From a virus: a stretch of DNA of 64,000 bases. This document shows, in pieces, positions 18,894 through 29,808 of this stretch. The position numbers were made by a program, and so were the translations under genes. The notes beneath the pieces were generated by a model. It saw only the letters and a list, made by a program, of their open reading frames with translations. It did not search any database and was not told where the DNA came from. The first letter of the stretch is position 1, and every line of letters begins with the position of its first letter. The stretch is taken from UHGV virus genome UHGV-0371537; one strand, given 5' to 3'.

Positions 18894-20093
18894 ATGAAAG
18901 ATAAAGCCCTGGACGTCCCGTACTGCGGTGTCCGCGAAGAAAAGATAAAGTCGGCCAAACCGGTTCTCAGTCCGACCCATACCCGCCTGTCTTATGACTG
19001 GATGAGCGAGCGCTATAAGATCCACGTTCGAAAGGACGTCCAGCGTCTTCCTGCTCCTTGGACGAATAATCCTATACTACGGCAGGTCAAGTTCTGTAAC
19101 GTCCGGAGAGAGCACGACAGGCAGTCTCTTAACCTGATCAACAACATCGTCAACAACGATGCTCTGGGTATGGCAGACAAGATGTTTAACTGCGTGCTGT
19201 TCCGCATGTTCAACCTCTGGGATCCGATCCAGGCTATCGGCGGCGCGATGACGATCAAAGAATTCGCCAAGATTAATCTTGACGCAACCCGTGAACGACT
19301 TCAGAAGTTCGAGGCTGACGGTGGTAAGGTATTCACCAATGCCTTCAACACAGGCGGCCTGAAGCAATGCCTGGCTTTCCCTGAGATGGTTGTCAACCAC
19401 AAGGAGCAGCTCTTCGGTGGGATGATGGTGAAAGTGTATCGCGTTGGCCAGGGTATTGTGGACGAGATGGACTACAAGGTCGCCAAGAAGCTGGTCGAAG
19501 AGAATCCTGGTGAATATACCATCGAGGGATGGGAACCGTACATGCCAATGCGTGTCATCCGTTCCCTGAAGGCATTCGTCAACAAGTATCCAAATTACTT
19601 CCATGACCTGCTGCGCCTTGGTACTCCTCTGGAAGTATACCAGCGCATGTACGACGACATCGAAGGGCTTGGTCCATTCCTGGCTTATCAGATCTGGGTG
19701 GACTTCACGTACATTCCTGAGTATCCGTTTAGTGAGAACCACTTCACGGTTGCTGGACCAGGCTGTCGTGCAGGCATCGACCTGATGTTCCTGAACAAAG
19801 ACGGTATGACCCACGAAGAATGCATCTTCTGGTTACGGGACAACCAGGACGCAGTGTATTCCCAATATGGATATGTTCGTGAGCAATTCTGGTCTGCGGA
19901 AGAGCCTTGGGATCAGTGTATGAATGTTCAACAATTAGAAAACCACTTTTGTGAATTGTCGAAATATACCCGTTGTGTAGAGGCTTTACAGCAAGGTAAA
20001 AAACCGCGCGGGAAGGTTGGATACGATGGGGAAGGACAACCTAAAGCGGCGACATCTGGTTCTAAAAACCTACTAAATTTATTTAAAAAGTAA
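18894..20093 (+). CDS. hypothetical protein (conserved-looking, function unknown)
   Basis: 399 aa, AAGAGGA RBS, preceded by terminator hairpin; no motif I can assign. Confidence 0.5.
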   Translation: MKDKALDVPYCGVREEKIKSAKPVLSPTHTRLSYDWMSERYKIHVRKDVQRLPAPWTNNPILRQVKFCNVRREHDRQSLNLINNIVNNDALGMADKMFNCVLFRMFNLWDPIQAIGGAMTIKEFAKINLDATRERLQKFEADGGKVFTNAFNTGGLKQCLAFPEMVVNHKEQLFGGMMVKVYRVGQGIVDEMDYKVAKKLVEENPGEYTIEGWEPYMPMRVIRSLKAFVNKYPNYFHDLLRLGTPLEVYQRMYDDIEGLGPFLAYQIWVDFTYIPEYPFSENHFTVAGPGCRAGIDLMFLNKDGMTHEECIFWLRDNQDAVYSQYGYVREQFWSAEEPWDQCMNVQQLENHFCELSKYTRCVEALQQGKKPRGKVGYDGEGQPKAATSGSKNLLNLFKK

Positions 20094-20123
20094 CTTACTT
20101 TGTGAGTTAAGAAAGTATATTAT

Positions 20124-20152
20124 AACAGGAACTTTCATTTGGAGTTCCTGTT
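20124..20152 (+). promoter_or_regulatory. RBS-sequestering hairpin ahead of the HNH homing endonuclease
   Basis: Perfect 10-bp inverted repeat AACAGGAACT / AGTTCCTGTT (loop 9 nt) encloses the GGAG Shine-Dalgarno and ends at ATG 20153. Confidence 0.5.
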
Positions 20153-21082
20153 ATGTTTTACGAATTATTGATTTCTAAAGGCGGTAAACCGCATTTTATC
20201 AAGAAGTATTTGAGGATGGTTCAATCTTTCAAATATTCTGATAGTGACTACACTGAATTACACCACATCCTTCCCAAGAGCATGTTCCCTGAATATTCTA
20301 AAGATAAGATAAATTTGGTTCGATTAACAGGCAGACAACATTATCTTGTCCATGTATGCTTGGCCTTGGCTTTCCCAAACACGAGAATGGTGTATGCTGT
20401 TGTAGCTATGAGAAAGGGAGGAAGAAGAAATAAATCAGGTATTCGGTTTAATTCTCATTTGTATGAAAGTTTCAGAATTAAATTCAGCGAACAACTATCT
20501 TTACAATGGAAAGGGGTTTCTCGGTTTGTGGGTAAAGACAACCCAATGTATGGGAGAAGAGGAAAGAATAATCCCCAATATGGGTATAAGAGAACTCCAG
20601 AGCAAGTCAAGAAAATTACCAAAGGATTGATGAAAATCCATGAAAGGATGGCTTCTGATCCGGAATATAAAAGAGAAGTTTTAGAGCAGCGTCGTACCAA
20701 TACGGATTTAAAGCAATTTTCTGAGCGTTCCCGCCAAGCAAAACTCGGTGAACTCAATCCTAATTATGGGAAGGACTTAACCAACTCTTTCACACCGGAA
20801 CAACGCGCCAAACAGAAAGAAAACGCTCAGAAAGGCATGTTGGCTAAGATGCCTTGGGAGAAGGGTAAATGGAACCCCGACAATGACGTATATTGGGAGA
20901 AAGCTGATCAATTCCTTGAAGCCCTGAATACGATGAAACGTTCAGAAGCCCTCTTGTTCGTGTATGGAACAAAAGATCTGAAGGCGTTTAATGCCACCAG
21001 TGGGATAATCGAACGTTTCAATAAAGGCTGGGAACCATTAAAATGCGTAAAATGGTTAAAAAGATATAAGGGTGAAAAATGA
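20153..21082 (+). CDS. HNH family homing endonuclease with NUMOD repeats (mob-like)
   Basis: ELHHILPKS...NLVRLTGRQHY (HNH), GKDNPMYGRRGKNNPQYG and NPNYGK NUMOD-like repeats; RBS inside a 10-bp hairpin. Confidence 0.75.
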   Translation: MFYELLISKGGKPHFIKKYLRMVQSFKYSDSDYTELHHILPKSMFPEYSKDKINLVRLTGRQHYLVHVCLALAFPNTRMVYAVVAMRKGGRRNKSGIRFNSHLYESFRIKFSEQLSLQWKGVSRFVGKDNPMYGRRGKNNPQYGYKRTPEQVKKITKGLMKIHERMASDPEYKREVLEQRRTNTDLKQFSERSRQAKLGELNPNYGKDLTNSFTPEQRAKQKENAQKGMLAKMPWEKGKWNPDNDVYWEKADQFLEALNTMKRSEALLFVYGTKDLKAFNATSGIIERFNKGWEPLKCVKWLKRYKGEK

Positions 21083-21303
21083 GCTGGAAATTGTTCAAAC
21101 TGTGTAAAGCGACTGATGAGTTTCTTCTGAAAGCCCGTATGGAAGGACGTCTCGTGTACACTCCTTACCCAGGCACTATTCGGTTTTGTAGTACGTTGAG
21201 GAAACAGAAATCAGTTTCTGGGCCAAGACGTTTGTTGATGCAGGGGATGCTGGCATACAACTCCGGTGATACTCGGCCTTGTGACGGTGGTAAGATCGTC
21301 TGA
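21079..21303 (+). CDS. hypothetical small protein, 4-nt overlap with the HNH gene
   Basis: 74-aa ORF starting in ATGA overlap with the homing endonuclease stop; may travel with the endonuclease. Confidence 0.35.
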   Translation: MSWKLFKLCKATDEFLLKARMEGRLVYTPYPGTIRFCSTLRKQKSVSGPRRLLMQGMLAYNSGDTRPCDGGKIV

Positions 21304-21422
21304 ATAAAGATTCCCTTTACTTCATTCTTCAATAACTTTTTTCAACGTATTATTGACCTCACTTAAACGAAGCGCCCTGGCAAACGGGGCGCACATTTGA
21401 ACTGAAACAGGAAGACTACATC

Positions 21423-23441
21423 ATGTCAGAATTTAAGCCCTTCGCAGTAGCTGTTAACAACAACGTGCTGGCCATGTCAGCAACTGGTCTGTTCATGACC
21501 AACATCGATAAAGATGCTCTGTGGGATCTGTATCTGTCTTCTTTCCCTGCTGGCACCAACCCGCTCTACCGTGAGCGTACCGAGCACGACTGCACCTGCT
21601 GCAAACAATTCATCCGTAATATCGGTGGTGTGGTTACCATCGACACTGACCTGAACGTGATCTCTATCTGGGATAACATTCAGCTGGGCAACGAATACGA
21701 CGTTGTCGCTGCGGCGCTGTCTGCGTATGTCAAGCAACACGCAATCGTCGACGTGTACTTCAACGATACCAAGAAAGTCGGTGTTGAGTCGAATCACGAA
21801 ATGAAAGACGGTAATGTCCGCACCTACAACCACTTCCACACCGACCTGCTGCCCAGCTATGTTCTGCGGGCTGATGCCATCGCTTCTAAGAAGGGTGAAA
21901 TCCGTCAGGCGATTGAAGTGTTTGAGCGCGGCCTGCGTGAACTGTCTCTGGAATCGGCTGAAATCGTTCTGGAATTGATCGACCAGAATTCTCTGTATCG
22001 CGGTGAAGAGCACAAGGCGGCAGTGCAGGCGTTCGTGGTGAACAAGACCCTGTACGAACAGACTGCAGAAGAGAAACGCGCTCTGTGGGCTTGGCGCACT
22101 GGCTATCATGCGAACGGTCATACCCCTCACGGCATTCGTAATACCGTGATTGGCTCTCTGTTGGTAGACCTCAACGAAGGCCGCGACCTGGAAACCGCCG
22201 TCAAGTCTTTCGAAGCCAAAGTAGCTCCGACGAACTACAAGCGCCCAACCGCGCTGGTAACTAAGTCGATGATCGAAAATGCGCAGAAAGAAGTTGAAGC
22301 GCTGGGTCTGACCGATTCACTGGGTCGCCGTTATGCCGTGTATGACGATCTGACCATCAACAACGTTCTGTTTGCCGACCTGGCAGCACAGAAGAAGATG
22401 GACCCGTTTGCTCAGCTGGCGTCTGAAGTGAAGACTCCGACCAAGTCCCTGGACAAGGTTGAAGAGATCACCATCGACGACTTCCTGGCGAACGTGCTGC
22501 CGAAAGCGCACTCAATGGAAGTGCTGGTTGAGAACTCTCACACTGGCAACCTGATGTCCCTGATCGCTCCGGCTACGGCAGGTGCTCCTAACCTGTTCAA
22601 GTGGAACAACGGCTTCAGCTGGTCATACAACGGTGAAGTGGCCGACTCCATCAAAGAGCGCGTGAAGACAGCAGGTGGCAACGTTGACGGTTTCCTCCGT
22701 GTGTCGCTGGCGTGGCATAACAACGACGACCTGGATCTGAGCCTGAACGATCCTTTACACAATCATGTGTATTACCACAACCGTCGCTCAGCAACTGGCG
22801 CAACCCTGGATATCGACATGAACGGTATGGACGGCATTGACCCGAATCGCCGCCCGGTGGAGAACATCTTCTTCAGCGATGAGCGCAAGCTGCGTAATGG
22901 TCTGTACGAGTTCTATGTCACTAACTTCAGCCAGCGTGAAACCTGTGATATGGGCTTCGAAATCGAAGTCGAATACAAAGGCCAGACCAAGCGTTTTTCG
23001 CATCCTGGCCTGAAGCACAAAGATCGCACTCTGGCTGTTGTGATTGATGTCCGCGCCGGACAGGTGGTAGACATCCGCTCTACTCTGAAAGACGATGCTC
23101 GTTCTCAGGAAATCTGGGGCATCAAGACCTCGGTCTTCCAGAAGGTACAGCTGGTTCTGAACTCACCAAACCATTGGGACGGCGAGCAGACGGGCAACAA
23201 GCACGTGTTCTTCATCCTGGAAGGTTGTGCTAACCCTGTCGGCACTCGTGGCTTCTATAACGAATATCTGAAGCCGGAACTGGATAAACACCGTAAGGTT
23301 TTTGAAATGTTAGGTAGTAAGATGAAAGTACAGCCAAGCACTGAGCAGCTGTCCGGTCTGGGCTTCTCTACCACCCAACGCAACCACGTGTTCGTGAAGG
23401 TGAGCGGCTCGTTCAACCGCACTGTAAAAGTTGTGTTCTAA
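21423..23441 (+). CDS. large hypothetical protein (672 aa), unassigned
   Basis: AGGA RBS; no Walker, vWA or nucleotidyltransferase motif seen; first gene of a + strand block running to the NAD cassette. Confidence 0.6.
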   Translation: MSEFKPFAVAVNNNVLAMSATGLFMTNIDKDALWDLYLSSFPAGTNPLYRERTEHDCTCCKQFIRNIGGVVTIDTDLNVISIWDNIQLGNEYDVVAAALSAYVKQHAIVDVYFNDTKKVGVESNHEMKDGNVRTYNHFHTDLLPSYVLRADAIASKKGEIRQAIEVFERGLRELSLESAEIVLELIDQNSLYRGEEHKAAVQAFVVNKTLYEQTAEEKRALWAWRTGYHANGHTPHGIRNTVIGSLLVDLNEGRDLETAVKSFEAKVAPTNYKRPTALVTKSMIENAQKEVEALGLTDSLGRRYAVYDDLTINNVLFADLAAQKKMDPFAQLASEVKTPTKSLDKVEEITIDDFLANVLPKAHSMEVLVENSHTGNLMSLIAPATAGAPNLFKWNNGFSWSYNGEVADSIKERVKTAGGNVDGFLRVSLAWHNNDDLDLSLNDPLHNHVYYHNRRSATGATLDIDMNGMDGIDPNRRPVENIFFSDERKLRNGLYEFYVTNFSQRETCDMGFEIEVEYKGQTKRFSHPGLKHKDRTLAVVIDVRAGQVVDIRSTLKDDARSQEIWGIKTSVFQKVQLVLNSPNHWDGEQTGNKHVFFILEGCANPVGTRGFYNEYLKPELDKHRKVFEMLGSKMKVQPSTEQLSGLGFSTTQRNHVFVKVSGSFNRTVKVVF

Positions 23442-23484
23442 ACCCTTTTGAAACTGTAACCCATTTATCATTGAGGAAAGTAAA

Positions 23485-23856
23485 ATGTTCGATAAAGCAA
23501 CCCGTCTGAAACTGCGCTTCGAGTCCAACAAAGGTCTGCTGTCTGTTGAGCAGGTTTGGGACCTGAGCCTGACCGCCCTGAACGAAATGGCCAAAGGTCT
23601 GAGCCGTCAGGTGAAGGCAGCGGAAACCGATGAAGAAGATTTCATCGGCACCAAAAGCGCCGTTGACTCCGAACTGCAGCTGCGCTTCGACGTTGTCAAG
23701 CACATTATCGGCGTTAAGCTGAAAGAGCGTGACGACAGCAAAGACGCGGCACAGCGTAAGGCGGACAACCAGGTTATTATGGAGCTGATCCAGCGTAAGA
23801 AACAGCAGGAGCTGGAAGGCAAATCTGTTGAAGAACTGGAAGCGCTGCTGAAATAA
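23485..23856 (+). CDS. hypothetical protein, charged/helical
   Basis: 123 aa, GAGGAAAG RBS, followed by a strong rho-independent terminator. Confidence 0.5.
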   Translation: MFDKATRLKLRFESNKGLLSVEQVWDLSLTALNEMAKGLSRQVKAAETDEEDFIGTKSAVDSELQLRFDVVKHIIGVKLKERDDSKDAAQRKADNQVIMELIQRKKQQELEGKSVEELEALLK

Positions 23857-23878
23857 CCCTGTTGGCTCCGGCCTGAGC

Positions 23879-23907
23879 AACCCCGCCTTGTGCGGGGTTT
23901 CTTTTAT
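23879..23907 (+). terminator. rho-independent terminator after gene 23485
   Basis: AACCCCGC-CTTGT-GCGGGGTT then TCTTTTAT. Confidence 0.7.
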
Positions 23908-23921
23908 CTGAGGAAACCGTT

Positions 23922-24716
23922 ATGACAACCATCAATCGTAATGAACCCAAAGGTGTTGAGCTGAAGGGTAAATCTGTTCGCGAAGGTCTGAAGCTGTCTC
24001 CAGACCTCCTGAAGTCCCACATTGCTGAAGTCATCTATGAAGACCGTGAAGTCGGCGGTCATCGTGTCATCACCTGCCACTTCAAGATGGATAATGGATT
24101 TATCGTCTGGGGCAAGAATAGCTCTACTTCCATCGACCCTGCCAACTTTGATGAAGAGTTGGGTAAGAAGCTGGCCTATGACAAGACCTTCTCTCAGTTG
24201 TGGGAACTGGAAGCCTACCGCGCCGTTGTGGAGAAGCAGATGTTGGAGGTGGCTACCGCCGATGCGAAGATAGACATCTTCCAGTACATCTCCGAAAGGG
24301 GGAAGATAAATCAGATGGCTGGTATGGAATTCTTGCAAGGCCACGGTCAGTCTTTCGTGTTCCGACATCCACGAGACCCAAGCCGGGGTTTCTGTGCTGA
24401 ATTTATTCAGACTGACAACGAACGCCACAACGAACAATTCAATGGTAAATCCCGAGAGAAGGTTGAAACCTATCTGCGTTCGTTCATGCACCCGGATGAA
24501 TTGTATTCTGAACTCGTTGTCCGTCTGGCAAAGACATGCATGGCGGCTTACAAGGGTGGGATCTACTTCAATGCCACCACTTGGGATAAGATGAGCGCCG
24601 AAGAACAGAAAGACTGCTGTGAAGGCATCAGGCGGCTCTTGCTGGCTCCGGCGGATTATATCCCAACTGATCAGAAGGACGCGCTGTTCAAGGCCATCGT
24701 CGATTCCTACAAATAA
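23922..24716 (+). CDS. hypothetical protein
   Basis: 264 aa, GAGGAAA RBS; antisense 274-aa ORF rejected; no motif assigned. Confidence 0.55.
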   Translation: MTTINRNEPKGVELKGKSVREGLKLSPDLLKSHIAEVIYEDREVGGHRVITCHFKMDNGFIVWGKNSSTSIDPANFDEELGKKLAYDKTFSQLWELEAYRAVVEKQMLEVATADAKIDIFQYISERGKINQMAGMEFLQGHGQSFVFRHPRDPSRGFCAEFIQTDNERHNEQFNGKSREKVETYLRSFMHPDELYSELVVRLAKTCMAAYKGGIYFNATTWDKMSAEEQKDCCEGIRRLLLAPADYIPTDQKDALFKAIVDSYK

Positions 24717-24746
24717 CTGAATCAGCAAACTCCTTCAATAACAATG

Positions 24747-24826: not shown

Positions 24827-25681
24827 ATGTTTCGTTTGAAATTGAACGACCAAGATGTGTTCTATAAGCACTTCACCTTCCCAGGTGGTGAGGAACATAT
24901 CAAGATCCAAAAGGCTGGAATCCCTATCGGCCACGTCCAGAACGTGGTGATTGATGCTCACATCAAATCCTCTGCTGACTTCGTTGAGCTGGCACTGCTG
25001 GTTAACGCTGTTCGTGGCCTGGGTAACGTGGACCGTCTGACGGCATTCCATGCATATATCCCGTACTTCCCATATGCGCGTCAGGATCGTCATTGTGACT
25101 TTGGTGAGCCTCTGTCCGTGAAGTGGGCGGCTGAGTTCATCAACAGCATGAACTTTGACCGCGTGGCGATCAAAGACCCTCATAGCCATGTCGTGTCTTC
25201 TCTGATCAACAACGTCCATGTGGTCCCGCAAGATTACATCGTGCGTCAATATCTGGGCTGGTTCATTCGCGGCAACAATGCTGTGCTGGTAGCCCCTGAC
25301 GGCGGCGCGGCGAAGAAGACCGAAGCCCTCAGCCTGTCATTGGACGGCGTTCCTGTTGTCTACGGACACAAGAACCGTGACACCAAGACTGGTGAGATCA
25401 TTGGGGTGAGTATTACAAACCCTGAACTGATCAAAGACCGCTATCTGGTTGTGGTTGATGATATCTGCGACGGTGGGCGCACGTTTGTTGAGCTGGGCAA
25501 AGAGCTTCAGAAGCACGAGCCTAAGCACATGACGCTCTTCGTCACCCATGGCATCTTCAGCAAAGGTCTCTCTGTTTTCGACGGGATCTATGATGCTGTG
25601 TATGCCGACACTGTCTGGTGGGAGAACATCACCGCCGACGGTCTTCCTTTCAAAACTGAAAATACAGGACGTGTAAAATGA
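24827..25681 (+). CDS. ribose-phosphate pyrophosphokinase (Prs) homolog; candidate ADP-ribose pyrophosphate synthetase (Adps) of an NAD+ reconstitution pathway
   Basis: IPYFPYARQDR and VVVDDICDGGRTF match Prs motifs (E. coli IPYFGYARQDRR, VLVDDMIDTGGTL); 4-nt overlap with downstream NAMPT-like gene. Confidence 0.8.
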   Translation: MFRLKLNDQDVFYKHFTFPGGEEHIKIQKAGIPIGHVQNVVIDAHIKSSADFVELALLVNAVRGLGNVDRLTAFHAYIPYFPYARQDRHCDFGEPLSVKWAAEFINSMNFDRVAIKDPHSHVVSSLINNVHVVPQDYIVRQYLGWFIRGNNAVLVAPDGGAAKKTEALSLSLDGVPVVYGHKNRDTKTGEIIGVSITNPELIKDRYLVVVDDICDGGRTFVELGKELQKHEPKHMTLFVTHGIFSKGLSVFDGIYDAVYADTVWWENITADGLPFKTENTGRVK

Positions 25682-27342
25682 GCATGCGCCACTTAGATCC
25701 GATCCATGCAATCGACTTCTACAAATCAGGGCACATCTATCAGTTCCCTGAAGGCAGCGAGCTGGTGTTCTCCAACGGAACTCCGCGCTCCAACAAACTG
25801 TTCAACTCTCACCTGCCGAAGAACGGCGTGGTGGTCTGGGGCATCCAGGGCTTCATGACTTGGTTCCATGAACTGTTTGACGAAGCATTCTTCCAGCGCC
25901 CGAAGGCCAAGGTGTTGAAGAAGTATGCCCGTCGCATGAACAAAGTCCTGGGTCCAGGTCGTGTTGGTACAGAGCATATTGAAGCCCTGCATGACCTCGG
26001 CTACCTGCCTATCGAAGTCCGTGCGCTGCCCGAAGGCACCATGTGTCCGTATGGCGTTCCGGTGTATGTGATGTTCAACACCTTGCCGGAGTTCTACTGG
26101 CTGACCAACTATCTGGAGACTGTGTTCAGCTCTGAGATCTGGAAGCCGATGACGAACGCCACCATCGCCCTGCATTACAAGGCACTGATGGTGAAAGCCG
26201 CTATCGCTACAGGTGTGTCGCCGGACCATTGGTTCATCGACTACCAAGGCCACGACTTCTCCTTCCGTGGCATGAGCGGGTGGCATGACGCGGCGTCTTC
26301 CGGTTCCGGCCATTTGGTATTCTTCAAAGGCACCGATACCAACCCTGCCCTGGACTTCGTAGAAGAGTATTATGGCGCAGACATCGACGAAGACTATGTC
26401 GTTGCTGGTTCTGTTGCGGCTACCGAACACGCCGTGATGTGTATGGGCACGAAGGATGGTGAATTCGAAACCTTCCGCCGCCTGGTGCAGGACGTGTATC
26501 CTGATGGCATCGTCAGTATCGTATCTGATGCATGGGATTACTGGCAGGTCATCGACGACTATCTCCCTCGCCTGAAAGACATTATCATGGCGCGTAACGG
26601 TAAAGTCGTGATCCGCCCCGACTCGGGCGACCCAGTACACATCGTTGGCGGCTACCGCATCGAGGGGTTCAAAGACCGCGCCACGCTGAACATCAGCGGC
26701 GTGTCTAGCAGCACCGAAGTCATTCACATCGAAGAGACGAACACCTATCACCTGATCACAGGCGAAGGCACGATCAATTCTCTGATGGCAGACGACCGTA
26801 ATATCATCAGCCGTTCTGAAGCAGTCGGCTCTATCCAGCGCCTGTGGGAGATCTTTGGCGGTACTCAAACTGAGACTGGTCACTTCCTTTTGGATGATCA
26901 CATCGGTCTGATCTACGGCGACTCCATCACCCTGGCACGTGAAGACCAGATCTTTAGCCGTCTGGCTGGCCGGAACTTCGCTTCCATCAACGTGGTGTTC
27001 GGTATCGGTTCCTACACCTACCAGATGAACACCCGTGACAGTACTGGCACGGCAGTGAAAGCCACGGCTGGTAAAGTGAACGGCGAATTCCGTGAGATCT
27101 TCAAAGAGCCGAAGACCGACAAAGGCGGGACTAAAAAGTCTGCACGTGGTTTCCTTAAAGTCATTAAAGACTCTCAGGGTAAACTAGTGTTGGTTGACGG
27201 TATCACCTTTGATCAGGTACAAGACGCCGACAACCAGCACCAACTGGTGTATCGTGATGGTAAGTTCTTCAACACTCAGACTCTGGAAGATGCGCGTGTT
27301 CGTGCTGCTCCTCTGGTGGCGGAACTGGCCTCACAAATCTGA
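25678..27342 (+). CDS. nicotinamide phosphoribosyltransferase (NAMPT) homolog; candidate nicotinamide ADP-ribose transferase (Namat)
   Basis: 554 aa; N-terminal AIDFYKSGHIYQF resembles the NAMPT DSYK region; family call from memory; no NMNAT (HxGH) gene seen nearby. Confidence 0.75.
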   Translation: MSMRHLDPIHAIDFYKSGHIYQFPEGSELVFSNGTPRSNKLFNSHLPKNGVVVWGIQGFMTWFHELFDEAFFQRPKAKVLKKYARRMNKVLGPGRVGTEHIEALHDLGYLPIEVRALPEGTMCPYGVPVYVMFNTLPEFYWLTNYLETVFSSEIWKPMTNATIALHYKALMVKAAIATGVSPDHWFIDYQGHDFSFRGMSGWHDAASSGSGHLVFFKGTDTNPALDFVEEYYGADIDEDYVVAGSVAATEHAVMCMGTKDGEFETFRRLVQDVYPDGIVSIVSDAWDYWQVIDDYLPRLKDIIMARNGKVVIRPDSGDPVHIVGGYRIEGFKDRATLNISGVSSSTEVIHIEETNTYHLITGEGTINSLMADDRNIISRSEAVGSIQRLWEIFGGTQTETGHFLLDDHIGLIYGDSITLAREDQIFSRLAGRNFASINVVFGIGSYTYQMNTRDSTGTAVKATAGKVNGEFREIFKEPKTDKGGTKKSARGFLKVIKDSQGKLVLVDGITFDQVQDADNQHQLVYRDGKFFNTQTLEDARVRAAPLVAELASQI

Positions 27343-27383: not shown

Positions 27384-27554
27384 ATGTCCAAACCATTCAA
27401 AAATGCGGGTGTCGACAACCTCGACCGCCGCTTTAGCCCATCGGAAACGCTGATGAGTCAGATTGAACTCAATCGCGATTTCCTGGAACATATGCTGGTC
27501 AAGCCGGAAGGTGAGGCCGAAGACAACCCTGAAGAAGGCAATAACGATGATTGA
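27384..27554 (+). CDS. small acidic protein overlapping the vWA gene start
   Basis: 56-aa ORF MSKPFKNAGV...EEGNNDD; GAGG RBS; stop overlaps vWA start (ATGATTGA); not in ORF track. Confidence 0.35.
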   Translation: MSKPFKNAGVDNLDRRFSPSETLMSQIELNRDFLEHMLVKPEGEAEDNPEEGNNDD

Positions 27555-29808
27555 ATCCCTGGAGTTTAAGAATGCGGTTTCGACTGTTGCTCCGTCCAAC
27601 CATGTAATCGTTGTGGACATCTCTTATTCGATGTACCGTGCGCTCCCTGAAGTCCGTAAGCACCTGAAGGAGAACCTGCCTTCCCTGGTGAAACCGGAAG
27701 ACACTGTGAGCCTCCTATACTTCTCATCCCGTGGCGACTTTGGTACTGTGTTCTCTGGTCGCCAGATCAGTGTTGCGTCTGATCTGAGCGAGCTGAACAA
27801 ACTGATTGATCGCTTCCTGCAACCATCCGGCTGTACTGGTTTTGTTGAACCTCTGGGTCTGGCGGTAGATACTGCGCGCAGTCTGAAGAAACCCGGCTAT
27901 GTCAACAACCTGGCATTCATGACCGATGGTTATGACAACTGCTGGCGCTCCAATGAGATCCTGGCCGTTGCCGAAACCTTGCCATTCGTCTTTGATAACA
28001 TCACTTTCATCGAATACGGCTGGTACTGTAACCGCGAACTGCTGGCTCAGATGTCTGAGCGTTCCGGCGCGACTCACGTGTTCGCCGAAGGCCAGACTGA
28101 ATATCAGACTGAGCTGGAAAACGTGTTGAAGTCCTCGGTGCCGAAGGTTCGTGTTGACGTTCCTCTGGTGTACACTCACGCCATTTATGTCGAAAACGGC
28201 GTAGCAACCGTGCTGGCGGTGCAAGCCGAAGCAAGAATGGATTTCCAGATTGGCGATGAGTCCGTAAAACGGAAAGTGATTGAAGTAGGCCACGTGAGCA
28301 TCCCTGAGAGCGTCACGAAGCTGTGGGTTGTCAATCCTAACATGATCGACCAGCTTGATGCGCTGGCGGACATCCAGGCGGCATACGTGCTGGCGTTCTA
28401 CGGCGTACACATCATGGACGCAGACCTGGTGTGGGCTGCACTGAAGAAAACGGGCGACGTTCGCTTCATCAAACAGTACAGCAACTGCTTCACCAAGCAG
28501 GACTACTCCAACATCAAAGTTGATCTGACCCAGGCCATCGTTGATGACCAGCTGCGCGGCGTTGATGGTATCGATTACAATATGGTCCCGGCTGAAGATG
28601 CCACGACCGTGGTTGATGTGCTGACGTACCTGGCCGAAGCTGGCGTGTCTGTTGCCACCAAGCACCCGATGTTCTCCTACAAGAGTATCGGTCGCGGTAC
28701 TGTACAGAAAGCCGACGACACCGAAGACAAACTGGCCGAAGAAATCGCGAACGCCCAGTCCAAAGAAGAGCGCAAAGCCCTGGCTCTCAAGCTGGCCGAG
28801 CACGAAGAGTGGACGCCGTCGTTTGAACCTGCCAATGATCTGGGTGTGGTTCCAATCAGCGACCTGGTCTATAACTCCGAGCGCCCGAACATCAGTGTGC
28901 GGACAGTGCAGCATGGTACTGTTGCAGTTCCTGAGTTCGCGCAGAAGAAGTACGGCCTGCCTGAAGAACTTGACACCTTCCAGTGGCGCAATTACACCAT
29001 CGTCAAAGATGGTATCATCAACGTGAAGACTCTACCGTTTAGACATACCGAATCACCAGTCCGGGGTGCTGAGGTTGTGCAAAAGCTGATCGAGATGGGC
29101 GTTCACGTGTTTGGTGGTCCAGAAGTGTTCATCTTGAACCTGGAAAGCGTACCGCTGGTCAACCGTGCGATGGTCAAGAACATCAGTGCTGCTCAGTTCT
29201 TTGCGGACAATGTCCGCCTGGAAGCCCTGAAAGGCAAGCAGAAGGTGCTGAAGTTCTATCGCGACGCTCTGGTTGGTAAAGGCAATGCCAAAGGTCTGGC
29301 TATTCAGTACGGCGCTGAGGCCGCAGAATACCTGTCTGGTGTTGGCATTCGCGATTACGGCTTCTCGCCGAAGACTGAGACCAAGGAGTCTACCGACTTC
29401 TACATGAGCCGTGAGCTGAACGTTAAGATCGCTGGCGCTTCTTCCCTGCCGAGCATCGCAGCGGTACAGAAGAAGATTGCCGACAAAAAGACTCTCAATG
29501 CGGGTGATATGTTCATCGCCAATGCCCTGAAAGAGTACGATGCATTCGTGAAGTCCCCGGCGATCACTGCCGTGCCTGAAGCCGTACAGAAACAGCTGAT
29601 CGAAAACTGGATCGACGCTGCTGCCAAGGCGGCCATCACTGAAGTCCGCGCTCTGAACAAGACGCTGTCTAAAGTGGTTTATGGTATCGTTGCTGGCCAC
29701 GGCTGGTTCACCGACCTCGACCTGGAAGAGTCCACCATGGAAGTTGAAGTGGATGGCGTGAAGTACAAGGTCACTGCCGAACTGGCAGAGAAAGAGATCA
29801 AAATCTAA
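27547..29808 (+). CDS. von Willebrand factor A (vWA) domain protein, 753 aa
   Basis: MIDAS-like HVIVVDISYSMY (DxSxS) with downstream T and MTDGYDN; start moved to ATG 27547 (GAAGAAGG RBS); rest unassigned. Confidence 0.65.
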   Translation: MIESLEFKNAVSTVAPSNHVIVVDISYSMYRALPEVRKHLKENLPSLVKPEDTVSLLYFSSRGDFGTVFSGRQISVASDLSELNKLIDRFLQPSGCTGFVEPLGLAVDTARSLKKPGYVNNLAFMTDGYDNCWRSNEILAVAETLPFVFDNITFIEYGWYCNRELLAQMSERSGATHVFAEGQTEYQTELENVLKSSVPKVRVDVPLVYTHAIYVENGVATVLAVQAEARMDFQIGDESVKRKVIEVGHVSIPESVTKLWVVNPNMIDQLDALADIQAAYVLAFYGVHIMDADLVWAALKKTGDVRFIKQYSNCFTKQDYSNIKVDLTQAIVDDQLRGVDGIDYNMVPAEDATTVVDVLTYLAEAGVSVATKHPMFSYKSIGRGTVQKADDTEDKLAEEIANAQSKEERKALALKLAEHEEWTPSFEPANDLGVVPISDLVYNSERPNISVRTVQHGTVAVPEFAQKKYGLPEELDTFQWRNYTIVKDGIINVKTLPFRHTESPVRGAEVVQKLIEMGVHVFGGPEVFILNLESVPLVNRAMVKNISAAQFFADNVRLEALKGKQKVLKFYRDALVGKGNAKGLAIQYGAEAAEYLSGVGIRDYGFSPKTETKESTDFYMSRELNVKIAGASSLPSIAAVQKKIADKKTLNAGDMFIANALKEYDAFVKSPAITAVPEAVQKQLIENWIDAAAKAAITEVRALNKTLSKVVYGIVAGHGWFTDLDLEESTMEVEVDGVKYKVTAELAEKEIKI

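Follow-up and report, generated by a model that had tools for sequence, protein, structure and literature searches.

A DUF8224 protein and a small partner protein form a mobile two-gene module in an Agtrevirus-like Ackermannviridae genome

The window analyzed was one strand of virus genome UHGV-0371537, 64,000 nucleotides (nt) in length, in which three consecutive genes occupy positions 21,423–24,716. Genes 1 and 2, encoding a DUF8224 protein and a small partner, constitute a self-contained, horizontally mobile two-gene module, and only these two stay together in each genome. The module is carried by large virulent phages of every tail type, by a giant virus and by ~160 bacterial species; gene 3 is separate from it. 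The anatomy set out below, comprising the two-gene module, a TerD-like insert that tracks the partner, short forms, natural knock-outs and cellular copies, is very probably correct. Lengths are given in amino acids (aa), and the features of the three-gene stretch are as follows:

21423..23441, plus strand: gene 1, 672 aa, DUF8224 (PF26675, phrog_1735), multi-domain
23485..23856, plus strand: gene 2, 123 aa, phrog_2018
23879..23909, plus strand: intrinsic-terminator-like hairpin and T-run closing the two-gene unit, from a scan and from the sequence
23922..24716, plus strand: gene 3, 264 aa, phrog_4435, Gp49/Sf6-gp66 family

Each open reading frame (ORF) is preceded by a ribosome-binding site, AGGAAG 9 nt 5′ of gene 1 and GAGGAAA 5′ of genes 2 and 3. 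The terminator hairpin between genes 2 and 3 (23879-23899) has an 8 bp stem with 6 GC pairs, is followed by TCTTTTAT and is kept in the relatives ChubbyThor and Yersinia phage CAU_YEP3. Database homologs numbered 172 for gene 2 and 44 for gene 3, and PHROG matches were full-length for gene 1 (E = 0), gene 2 (E = 3.6e-48) and gene 3 (E = 7.6e-117). Because of the many homologs and the full-length matches, the three ORFs are real genes and not chance ORFs. Long antisense ORFs, such as one of 274 aa at 23904-24728 on the minus strand, were set aside as shadows of the coding strand.

An earlier note on this DNA (the original prediction) had placed the three ORFs, their strand and ribosome-binding sites, the terminator after the second gene and the flanks (a homing endonuclease and a Prs/NAMPT pair) correctly. 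Its statement that the proteins have no recognizable motif held for genes 1 and 2, for which Pfam, NCBIfam and PADLOC scans returned zero families, and failed for gene 3, which carries PF13876 (residues 27-101, E = 4.5e-12). In Pfam, PHROGs, NCBIfam and PDB sequence searches, genes 1-3 had no Walker ATPase, ligase, Nudix or routine T4-type match; these searches were empty of the confident homology to routine T4-family proteins (rIIA/rIIB, ligase, structural) that would have refuted the original prediction. PADLOC-DB gave 0 families at E up to 0.1 for genes 1-3 and for a von Willebrand factor A (vWA) protein encoded further downstream.

Gene 2 is an obligate partner of DUF8224. The two genes lie 43 bp apart in the window, and gene 2 was matched by the partner hidden Markov model (HMM) at E = 8.2e-56. 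With this HMM, a same-strand partner was found beside DUF8224 in 85 of the 88 viral loci; the other three were a short form in phage Bosa, described below, and two contigs ending within 535 bp. The gap between the two genes was usually 10-60 bp, the partner was directly upstream in three viral loci, and the module pairs a DUF8224 protein of ~670 aa with a coiled-coil partner of ~125-135 aa. After grouping at 65% identity into 45 lineages, the only genes in common were DUF8224 (45/45) and the partner (44/45), the other clusters being antisense shadow ORFs. Genes of 129-140 aa that are 33-51% identical to gene 2 lie directly 3′ of DUF8224 in two distant metagenomic phage contigs, Caulobacter phage Ccr2 and Bacillus phage PBC6, and the counts of phage records per host genus run parallel for DUF8224 and the partner. 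The gene 2 protein is acidic, hydrophilic and without cysteines, and its AlphaFold2 model (predicted local distance difference test, pLDDT, 81.5) consists of a small N-terminal hairpin/helix domain, a ~50-residue helix and a short C-terminal helix. A conserved third gene was considered and rejected: downstream genes of ~255 aa and ~485 aa recur by size but are unrelated (phmmer) and carry different Pfam domains.

Gene 1 is a typical member of DUF8224/PHROG 1735, with the same length and invariant motifs, 94-98% identity to Ag3-like phage proteins and no family-level difference. Positions 1-673 of the phrog_1735 profile aligned to gene 1 residues 1-672 (E = 0). The PF26675 assignment was made via close homologs, those 98% identical to gene 1 bearing a precomputed PF26675 (DUF8224) tag; the direct Pfam scan of gene 1 used a copy without PF26675 and gave 0 families. 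A word-indexed search found more than 5,379 clusters of DUF8224 homologs at 90% identity and an exhaustive profile search 9,354 clusters at 50% identity (E ≤ 0.001); nearly all of the best 150 profile-search matches were 650-720 aa long. Among the 50,697 phage records on deposit, 559 had DUF8224; they include Ackermannviridae, Cronobacter and Klebsiella myoviruses of ~145-150 kb, Caulobacter phiCbK-like siphoviruses, Bacillus Bastille-like phages, SP-15, Lu11, Microcystis and Cellulophaga phages and an N4-like podovirus. Identity to gene 1 was 40-52% in most phage groups and ~28-38% in the most distant. Phages whose hosts are unrelated still share 45-50% identity in this protein, which speaks for a universal target.

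The original prediction had proposed a remote-homology check by Foldseek on the predicted structure. In the PDB it gave no match at E ≤ 0.001, and in BFVD it returned uncharacterized proteins only, among them structural relatives of gene 1 in the giant virus Indivirus and in several jumbo phages. A literature search on DUF8224/PF26675, the PHROG numbers, Ackermannviridae transcriptomes and TerD together with Ackermannviridae found nothing on these genes. The GenBank labels 'DNA-directed RNA polymerase' and 'SAP domain protein', attached to some DUF8224 records, had no support in the searches; other records are labeled 'coil containing protein' or 'structural protein'. In RiverRider, a Xanthomonas N4-like podovirus, an array of seven tRNA genes stands directly after the DUF8224 pair (locus L170, 5014-6320).

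The AlphaFold2 model of gene 1 was built on 41 sequences (mean pLDDT 83), and invariant residues are the invariant columns of the 41-sequence alignment. The parts of the protein are as follows:

21585..21602, plus strand: H-D-C-x-C-C cluster, aa 55-60, from the 41-sequence alignment
22659..23087, plus strand: TerD-like beta-sandwich insert, aa 413-555
23100..23441, plus strand: C-terminal domain, aa 560-672, plus stop codon, with invariant S-P-N-x-W and R-G-x-x-N-E motifs

The N-terminal 400 residues were modeled with confidence and match no solved structure. Within them D56, C57 and C60 are invariant, forming a CxxC at the start of a helix that runs from residue 58, and C59 is nearly invariant. 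The conservation of this cluster suggests a putative metal or redox site, of which H137, also invariant, may be a further ligand. Residues 413-555 have the TerD beta-sandwich fold in the AlphaFold2 model. This insert carries the invariant acidic motifs W431-x-N433-x-DDLD438, L462-D-x-D-M-N467 and V479-E-N481, with D435, D436, D438, D463, D465, N467, E480 and N481 invariant, at positions reminiscent of the Ca2+ loops in TerD (2kxt). In the model the insert is thus TerD-like by fold; it is not filed as a TerD family member, because neither any sequence method nor Foldseek against the PDB finds TerD. It differs from TerD (PDB 2kxt, 2qz7; PF02342) in giving no sequence-level match, the weak recurring Pfam signal being DUF2135 instead. 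Across the 41 members, Pfam gave weak DUF2135 (4/41) and Rdx (3/41) matches, neither significant after multiple testing. TerD is moreover a stand-alone protein of ~190 aa, whereas gene 1 has the domain as an insert in 672 aa, and no TerB, TerC or TelA is linked to the gene 1 pair, the rest of the window not having been searched for them.

Short DUF8224 forms of ~540-575 aa were found in Xanthomonas phages Bosa and Xoo-sp2, Pseudomonas phage phiH2 and the jumbo Klebsiella phage KpLz-2_45. They match the DUF8224 profile at positions 3-397 and ~555-660, the latter corresponding to the C-terminal domain, and the gap between the two matches is exactly the beta-sandwich. The Bosa protein keeps the Cys cluster as HNCNCC. 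None of the short-form loci has a partner gene; Bosa gp07, the gene after Bosa gp06, was tried as a remote partner homolog and rejected (hhalign probability 0.1%). Because short forms without the insert are also without the partner, the simplest reading is that the core (N-module and C-domain) would be the working part, and the insert and partner an added regulatory or targeting layer.

Natural knock-outs were found in the Limestoneviruses, where Dickeya phage LIMEstone1 retains the following remnants:

locus L168, 5043-5991: DUF8224 remnant, ORF113, ORF112 and ORF111, annotated as separate hypothetical proteins
locus L168, 6091-6423: nadV fragment, 110 aa

All that is left of gene 1 in LIMEstone1 is pieces that align to profile positions 1-171 and 211-265; no copy of gene 2, gene 3 or Prs remains, and nadV is shortened. 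Since this phage has lost the module, the module is not essential for lytic growth. Dickeya phages of the phiDP23.1 type have kept gene 2. In PHROGs and BFVD the LIMEstone1 fragments are listed separately, as families or entries in their own right (phrog_25920, 21434, 38165).

Outside viruses, a scan of one genome per species gave 160 cellular loci in ~160 bacterial species. Many were in Micromonosporaceae (Micromonospora, Actinoplanes, Salinispora and Dactylosporangium, complete chromosomes included); others were in Myxococcota, Bradyrhizobium, Sericytochromatia and Clostridia. The partner was present in 76 of the 80 bacterial loci examined, and the four misses were at contig ends. Micromonosporaceae loci had a local GC content of 0.66-0.72 and were flanked by ordinary genes, namely for a LuxR regulator, a short-chain dehydrogenase, an ECF sigma factor, an ABC ATPase and an aldo-keto reductase, with no flank conserved among 36 loci. 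The pair can therefore be a stand-alone cassette outside phages, which makes a virion role less likely and favors a target present in uninfected cells. Bacterial flanks were also considered as defense islands, and this was rejected: PADLOC gave 0 families for nine bacterial neighbors, and two large flanking proteins were unrelated.

Genes next to the pair were compared across loci. The most suggestive cellular context was found in Bradyrhizobium sp. Tv2a-2, a culturable organism, where a four-gene run on one strand of the chromosome (locus L100, 6604-11033) consists of RtcB (54 bp upstream), DUF8224, the partner and an HD_4 hydrolase (55 bp downstream). RtcB was also near the pair in two further loci and a LigD-type ligase in six. 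Seeds for RtcB, HD, polynucleotide kinase (PNK) and RNA ligase, run against 168 loci, matched in 1-6 loci each and were kept as a weak lead. The Bradleyvirinae short forms lie between ribonucleotide reductase (RNR) and a PNK and DNA-ligase pair, and ten diverse immediate flanks included three SF2 helicases and one PD-(D/E)XK nuclease. Salmonella phage Arash gp143 (locus L169, 3251-3703), two genes upstream of the pair and labeled 'RNA ligase', was a better match to anti-CBASS Acb1 (PF23474, E = 1.3e-15) than to the 2′-5′ RNA ligase family.

These contexts may be compared with end-healing and sealing sets (T4 Pnk and Rnl1, RtcB, LigD-type ligases). Such genes recur beside the pair or a short form in unrelated genomes, and the pair resembles them in being a dispensable extra of large phages that moves horizontally. 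The pair has no homology to those enzymes, however, and the association is sparse and not conserved across lineages. The comparison may serve as a lead on the field of action and not on family membership.

The explanation tentatively preferred as a whole is that the two-gene module, separate from gene 3, encodes a cytoplasmic complex in damage control. The gene 1 and gene 2 proteins would form a soluble cytoplasmic complex, in which the TerD-like domain would probably bind Ca2+ via the invariant Asp/Asn/Glu loops and would dock, or respond to, the partner. The conserved core would act on a target common to all bacteria. As the field of action, nucleic-acid or nucleotide damage control, i.e. 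repair or counter-defense during infection, would come first, and virion structure and core replication would be less likely; taken by itself this assignment is possible but doubtful. The flanks (RtcB, LigD-type ligase, PNK, Acb1, helicases, and hypermodification and NAD salvage genes) lean in this direction and so are a weak pointer to damage control. The module would be helpful but dispensable. In its most specific form, which is unlikely, the proposal would be a new and very widespread two-protein machine, common to tailed phages, at least one giant virus and some bacteria, that repairs or neutralizes nucleic-acid or nucleotide damage and in which a novel-fold core with a Cys-Cys-His metal site is switched or targeted by a Ca2+-binding TerD-like domain and a coiled-coil partner.

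Several results weigh against the damage-control complex. The TerD Pfam family PF02342 was absent from the whole protein, from nine isolated domain sequences (E up to 10) and from the 41 members. A profile of the TerD-like domain gave no match among PDB sequences, where single sequences and profiles of the whole protein, the TerD-like domain and the partner yielded noise only, and Foldseek gave no PDB match at E ≤ 0.001; the likeness to TerD is one of modeled fold and motif pattern only. The core has no recognizable catalytic fold and hence may be no enzyme. Synteny is the sole basis for a physical interaction of the two proteins, and none of 432 proteins examined was a natural fusion of the two. 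Repair and counter-defense neighbors are sparse, with none conserved across the 45 lineages, and PADLOC was empty for the three proteins and the bacterial flanks. DNA ligase was within 8 kb in 12 of the 88 loci, about chance for large phages, and this linkage was not used as evidence.

Four other explanations were weighed. In the first, the pair would be a dedicated anti-defense sponge or sensor, an abundant complex that sequesters or degrades a nucleotide-derived immune signal or blocks an abortive-infection effector. Arash contains both proteins in abundance, the pair has Acb1 and NAD salvage genes in its vicinity, the HD_4 hydrolase is next to it in Bradyrhizobium, TerD domains have been proposed as ligand sensors, and the pair is dispensable in one genus. 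Known sponges and inhibitors, however, are small and fast-evolving, whereas the 75-kDa gene 1 protein is 45-50% identical across host phyla. The short forms work without the TerD-like domain, bacterial chromosomal copies are hard to explain for a pure anti-defense protein, and there was no match to known defense models (PADLOC). This explanation is quite unlikely.

In the second, DUF8224 and its partner would travel in the virion, as structural or as ejected proteins, and act at or just after DNA entry. Arash records label both 'structural protein' from liquid chromatography-mass spectrometry of gradient-purified particles (26 and 13 unique peptides), and the nearby vWA protein is a structural protein confirmed by mass spectrometry in LIMEstone1. 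The Arash list, however, holds 116 proteins, including RNR, deoxynucleoside monophosphate kinase, NAMPT (423 spectra) and an HNH endonuclease, and its authors themselves allow for carry-over of abundant proteins; the data show co-expression of both proteins in quantity and little else. The pair moreover spans myo-, sipho- and podoviruses, stands alone in bacterial chromosomes without phage genes and sits in gene blocks for replication and nucleotide metabolism, not in those for morphogenesis, and Limestoneviruses without it still make plaques. A virion role is improbable.

In the third, gene 1, Prs/NAMPT and the vWA protein would form a phage-borne Ter-type stress or superinfection-exclusion system resembling bacterial Ter operons. 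Ter operons unite TerD, phosphoribosyltransferases (PRTases) and vWA proteins such as TerF, and partial Ter operons occur in jumbo and Caulobacter phages (PMC7824862). In the window the three component types follow one another on a single strand. The linkage was nevertheless seen in Ackermannviridae only, and even there CAU_YEP3 has genes 1-3 and the vWA gene without Prs/NAMPT. The vWA protein is distributed differently across lineages, neither a vWA nor a PRTase gene goes with the pair in the 45 viral lineages or in bacteria, gene 1 fails the TerD Pfam model, and NAD salvage accounts for Prs and NAMPT. The combination of TerD, PRTase and vWA as a Ter system was largely refuted by the phyletic patterns and is very improbable.

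Least probable of all is that gene 1 is an accessory of DNA hypermodification, working with the 5-hydroxymethyldeoxyuridine (5-hmdU) kinase-like enzyme that starts thymidine hypermodification: gene 1 is directly 3′ of an HMUDK_hel/aGPT-Pplase-type gene in relatives without the homing endonuclease, and DUF8224 is also in Bacillus phage SP-15, whose DNA is hypermodified, but this adjacency was not seen outside Ackermannviridae, bacteria and many phages have the pair without such a kinase nearby, and Limestoneviruses (LIMEstone1) keep the kinase-like gene (ORF115) and have lost gene 1.

Gene 3 is an Ackermannviridae-specific derivative of the Gp49 (N4)/gp66 (Sf6) plus RyR protein, with a decayed RyR domain, and is separate from the pair, lying after its terminator. 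Two parts were recognized:

24000..24224, plus strand: Phage_gp49_66 domain, aa 27-101 (PF13876, E = 4.5e-12, 46.8 bits versus a cut-off of 27)
24507..24713, plus strand: C-terminal RyR remnant, aa 196-264, from an alignment with relatives carrying PF02026

The basic Gp49 family protein is widespread, ~210 aa long and composed of a Gp49 and a RyR domain (PF02026). Gene 3 shares the N-terminal Gp49 domain of N4 Gp49 and Sf6 gp66 (PF13876), and its C-terminus aligns with the RyR region. It differs by a variable segment of ~95 aa between the Gp49 and RyR parts, an insert specific to the Ackermannviridae versions, and by a deletion of ~27 core residues of the RyR domain in the Agtrevirus-type version of the window; the domain is intact in Kuttervirus-type proteins. 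Gene 3 gave no PF02026 match, and in the alignment it lacks the ~27 columns of the conserved core W..K...GW.YG...D...K.HP that relatives with PF02026 have. Full-length relatives came only from Ackermannviridae-sized contigs, and no gene 3 homolog stands beside the pair outside this family in the 45 viral lineages.

The window belongs to an Agtrevirus-like Ackermannviridae genome: the region shares 94% identity with Shigella phage Ag3 and 91-94% with other Agtrevirus-like relatives. Around the three genes are the following:

18894-20093: 5-hmdU DNA kinase helical-domain protein (HMUDK_hel; PF18723, E = 3.8e-81)
20153-21082: HNH/NUMOD3 homing endonuclease (phrog_655), low GC (0.36-0.43)
21079-21303: 74-aa ORF after the endonuclease
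23857-23921: small-gene slot after the terminator, empty in the window (in relatives: locus L001, 8592-9020; locus L002, 8795-9227)
24827-25681: Prs-like gene
25678-27342: NAMPT
27463-29808: vWA protein (phrog_2426)

In relatives the order is clamp, clamp loader, RegA, NTP pyrophosphohydrolase, 5-hmdU kinase-like/aGPT-Pplase gene, gene 1, gene 2, DUF3268 zinc-finger gene, gene 3, Prs, NAMPT, vWA protein and acyl carrier protein. Genes 1-3 are the stable part of this stretch and are kept through Ackermannviridae, one genus, the Limestoneviruses, being the exception; the endonuclease, the DUF3268 gene and Prs/NAMPT are variable. The Prs-like and NAMPT cassette (24827-27342) is missing from CAU_YEP3 and is represented in LIMEstone1 only by the 110-aa nadV fragment. 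The DUF3268 zinc-finger gene (142 aa, Pfam E = 3.7e-36), directly 3′ of the shared terminator in relatives, is absent here, and CAU_YEP3 has another small gene in the same slot. Because relatives fill the slot at 23857-23921 with different small genes and the window with none, it is an insertion/deletion hotspot.

The homing endonuclease gene is an insertion that separates gene 1 from the 5-hmdU kinase-like gene (stretch 20093-21422) and is missing from ChubbyThor. The surrounding genome and the three genes have a GC content of 0.49-0.55; only the upstream endonuclease gene is AT-rich. At the junction with the insert, the last ~35 residues of the kinase-like protein differ from its ChubbyThor counterpart; the kinase-like gene is a marker of thymidine hypermodification in Ackermannviridae and gives the lineage at a glance. 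The 74-aa ORF had no homolog and no family match and is not related to the upstream gene. A GC-rich hairpin without a T-run, GCGCCC-N8-GGGGCGC at 21372-21392, lies 30 nt 5′ of the gene 1 start and may act in RNA processing or stability, or may mark where the endonuclease insert ends. The vWA protein probably starts at the ATG at 27547 (753 aa) rather than the TTG at 27463. It is found in Ackermannviridae, T4-like Klebsiella and Cronobacter phages and Rhizobium phages, with homologs 47% identical in T4-like Klebsiella, Cronobacter and Enterobacter phages, and some records call it "minor tail protein".

Set against this background, much of the frame of the original prediction changes. The lack of a T4 counterpart, on which it had drawn, is moot in a phage that is Agtrevirus-like and not T4-like. 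The supposed accessory block is kept through Ackermannviridae, with the flanking elements varying instead. The synteny across relatives that it had asked for was found for all three genes within Ackermannviridae; beyond the family only genes 1 and 2 are together, so the three do not form one unit. As candidates for new anti-defense functions they are not new, being catalogued families (DUF8224/PF26675, phrog_2018 and PF13876/phrog_4435), although the neighborhood is indeed rich in counter-defense-type genes, the 5-hmdU kinase-like gene and Prs/NAMPT, and an anti-defense role for the three genes is possible. They are conserved hypothetical genes of a kind ordinary in Ackermannviridae and do not make up a novel accessory island.

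DUF8224 is among the larger families of phage proteins without known function. New for this family are its small constant partner and the tie between that partner and the TerD-like insert that short forms lack, together with the stand-alone copies in culturable Micromonosporaceae and Bradyrhizobium and the Limestoneviruses as natural knock-outs. These additions make DUF8224 easier to study. If the two-protein machine proposed above were true, it would be a general counter-defense or repair system that is in no current catalogue.

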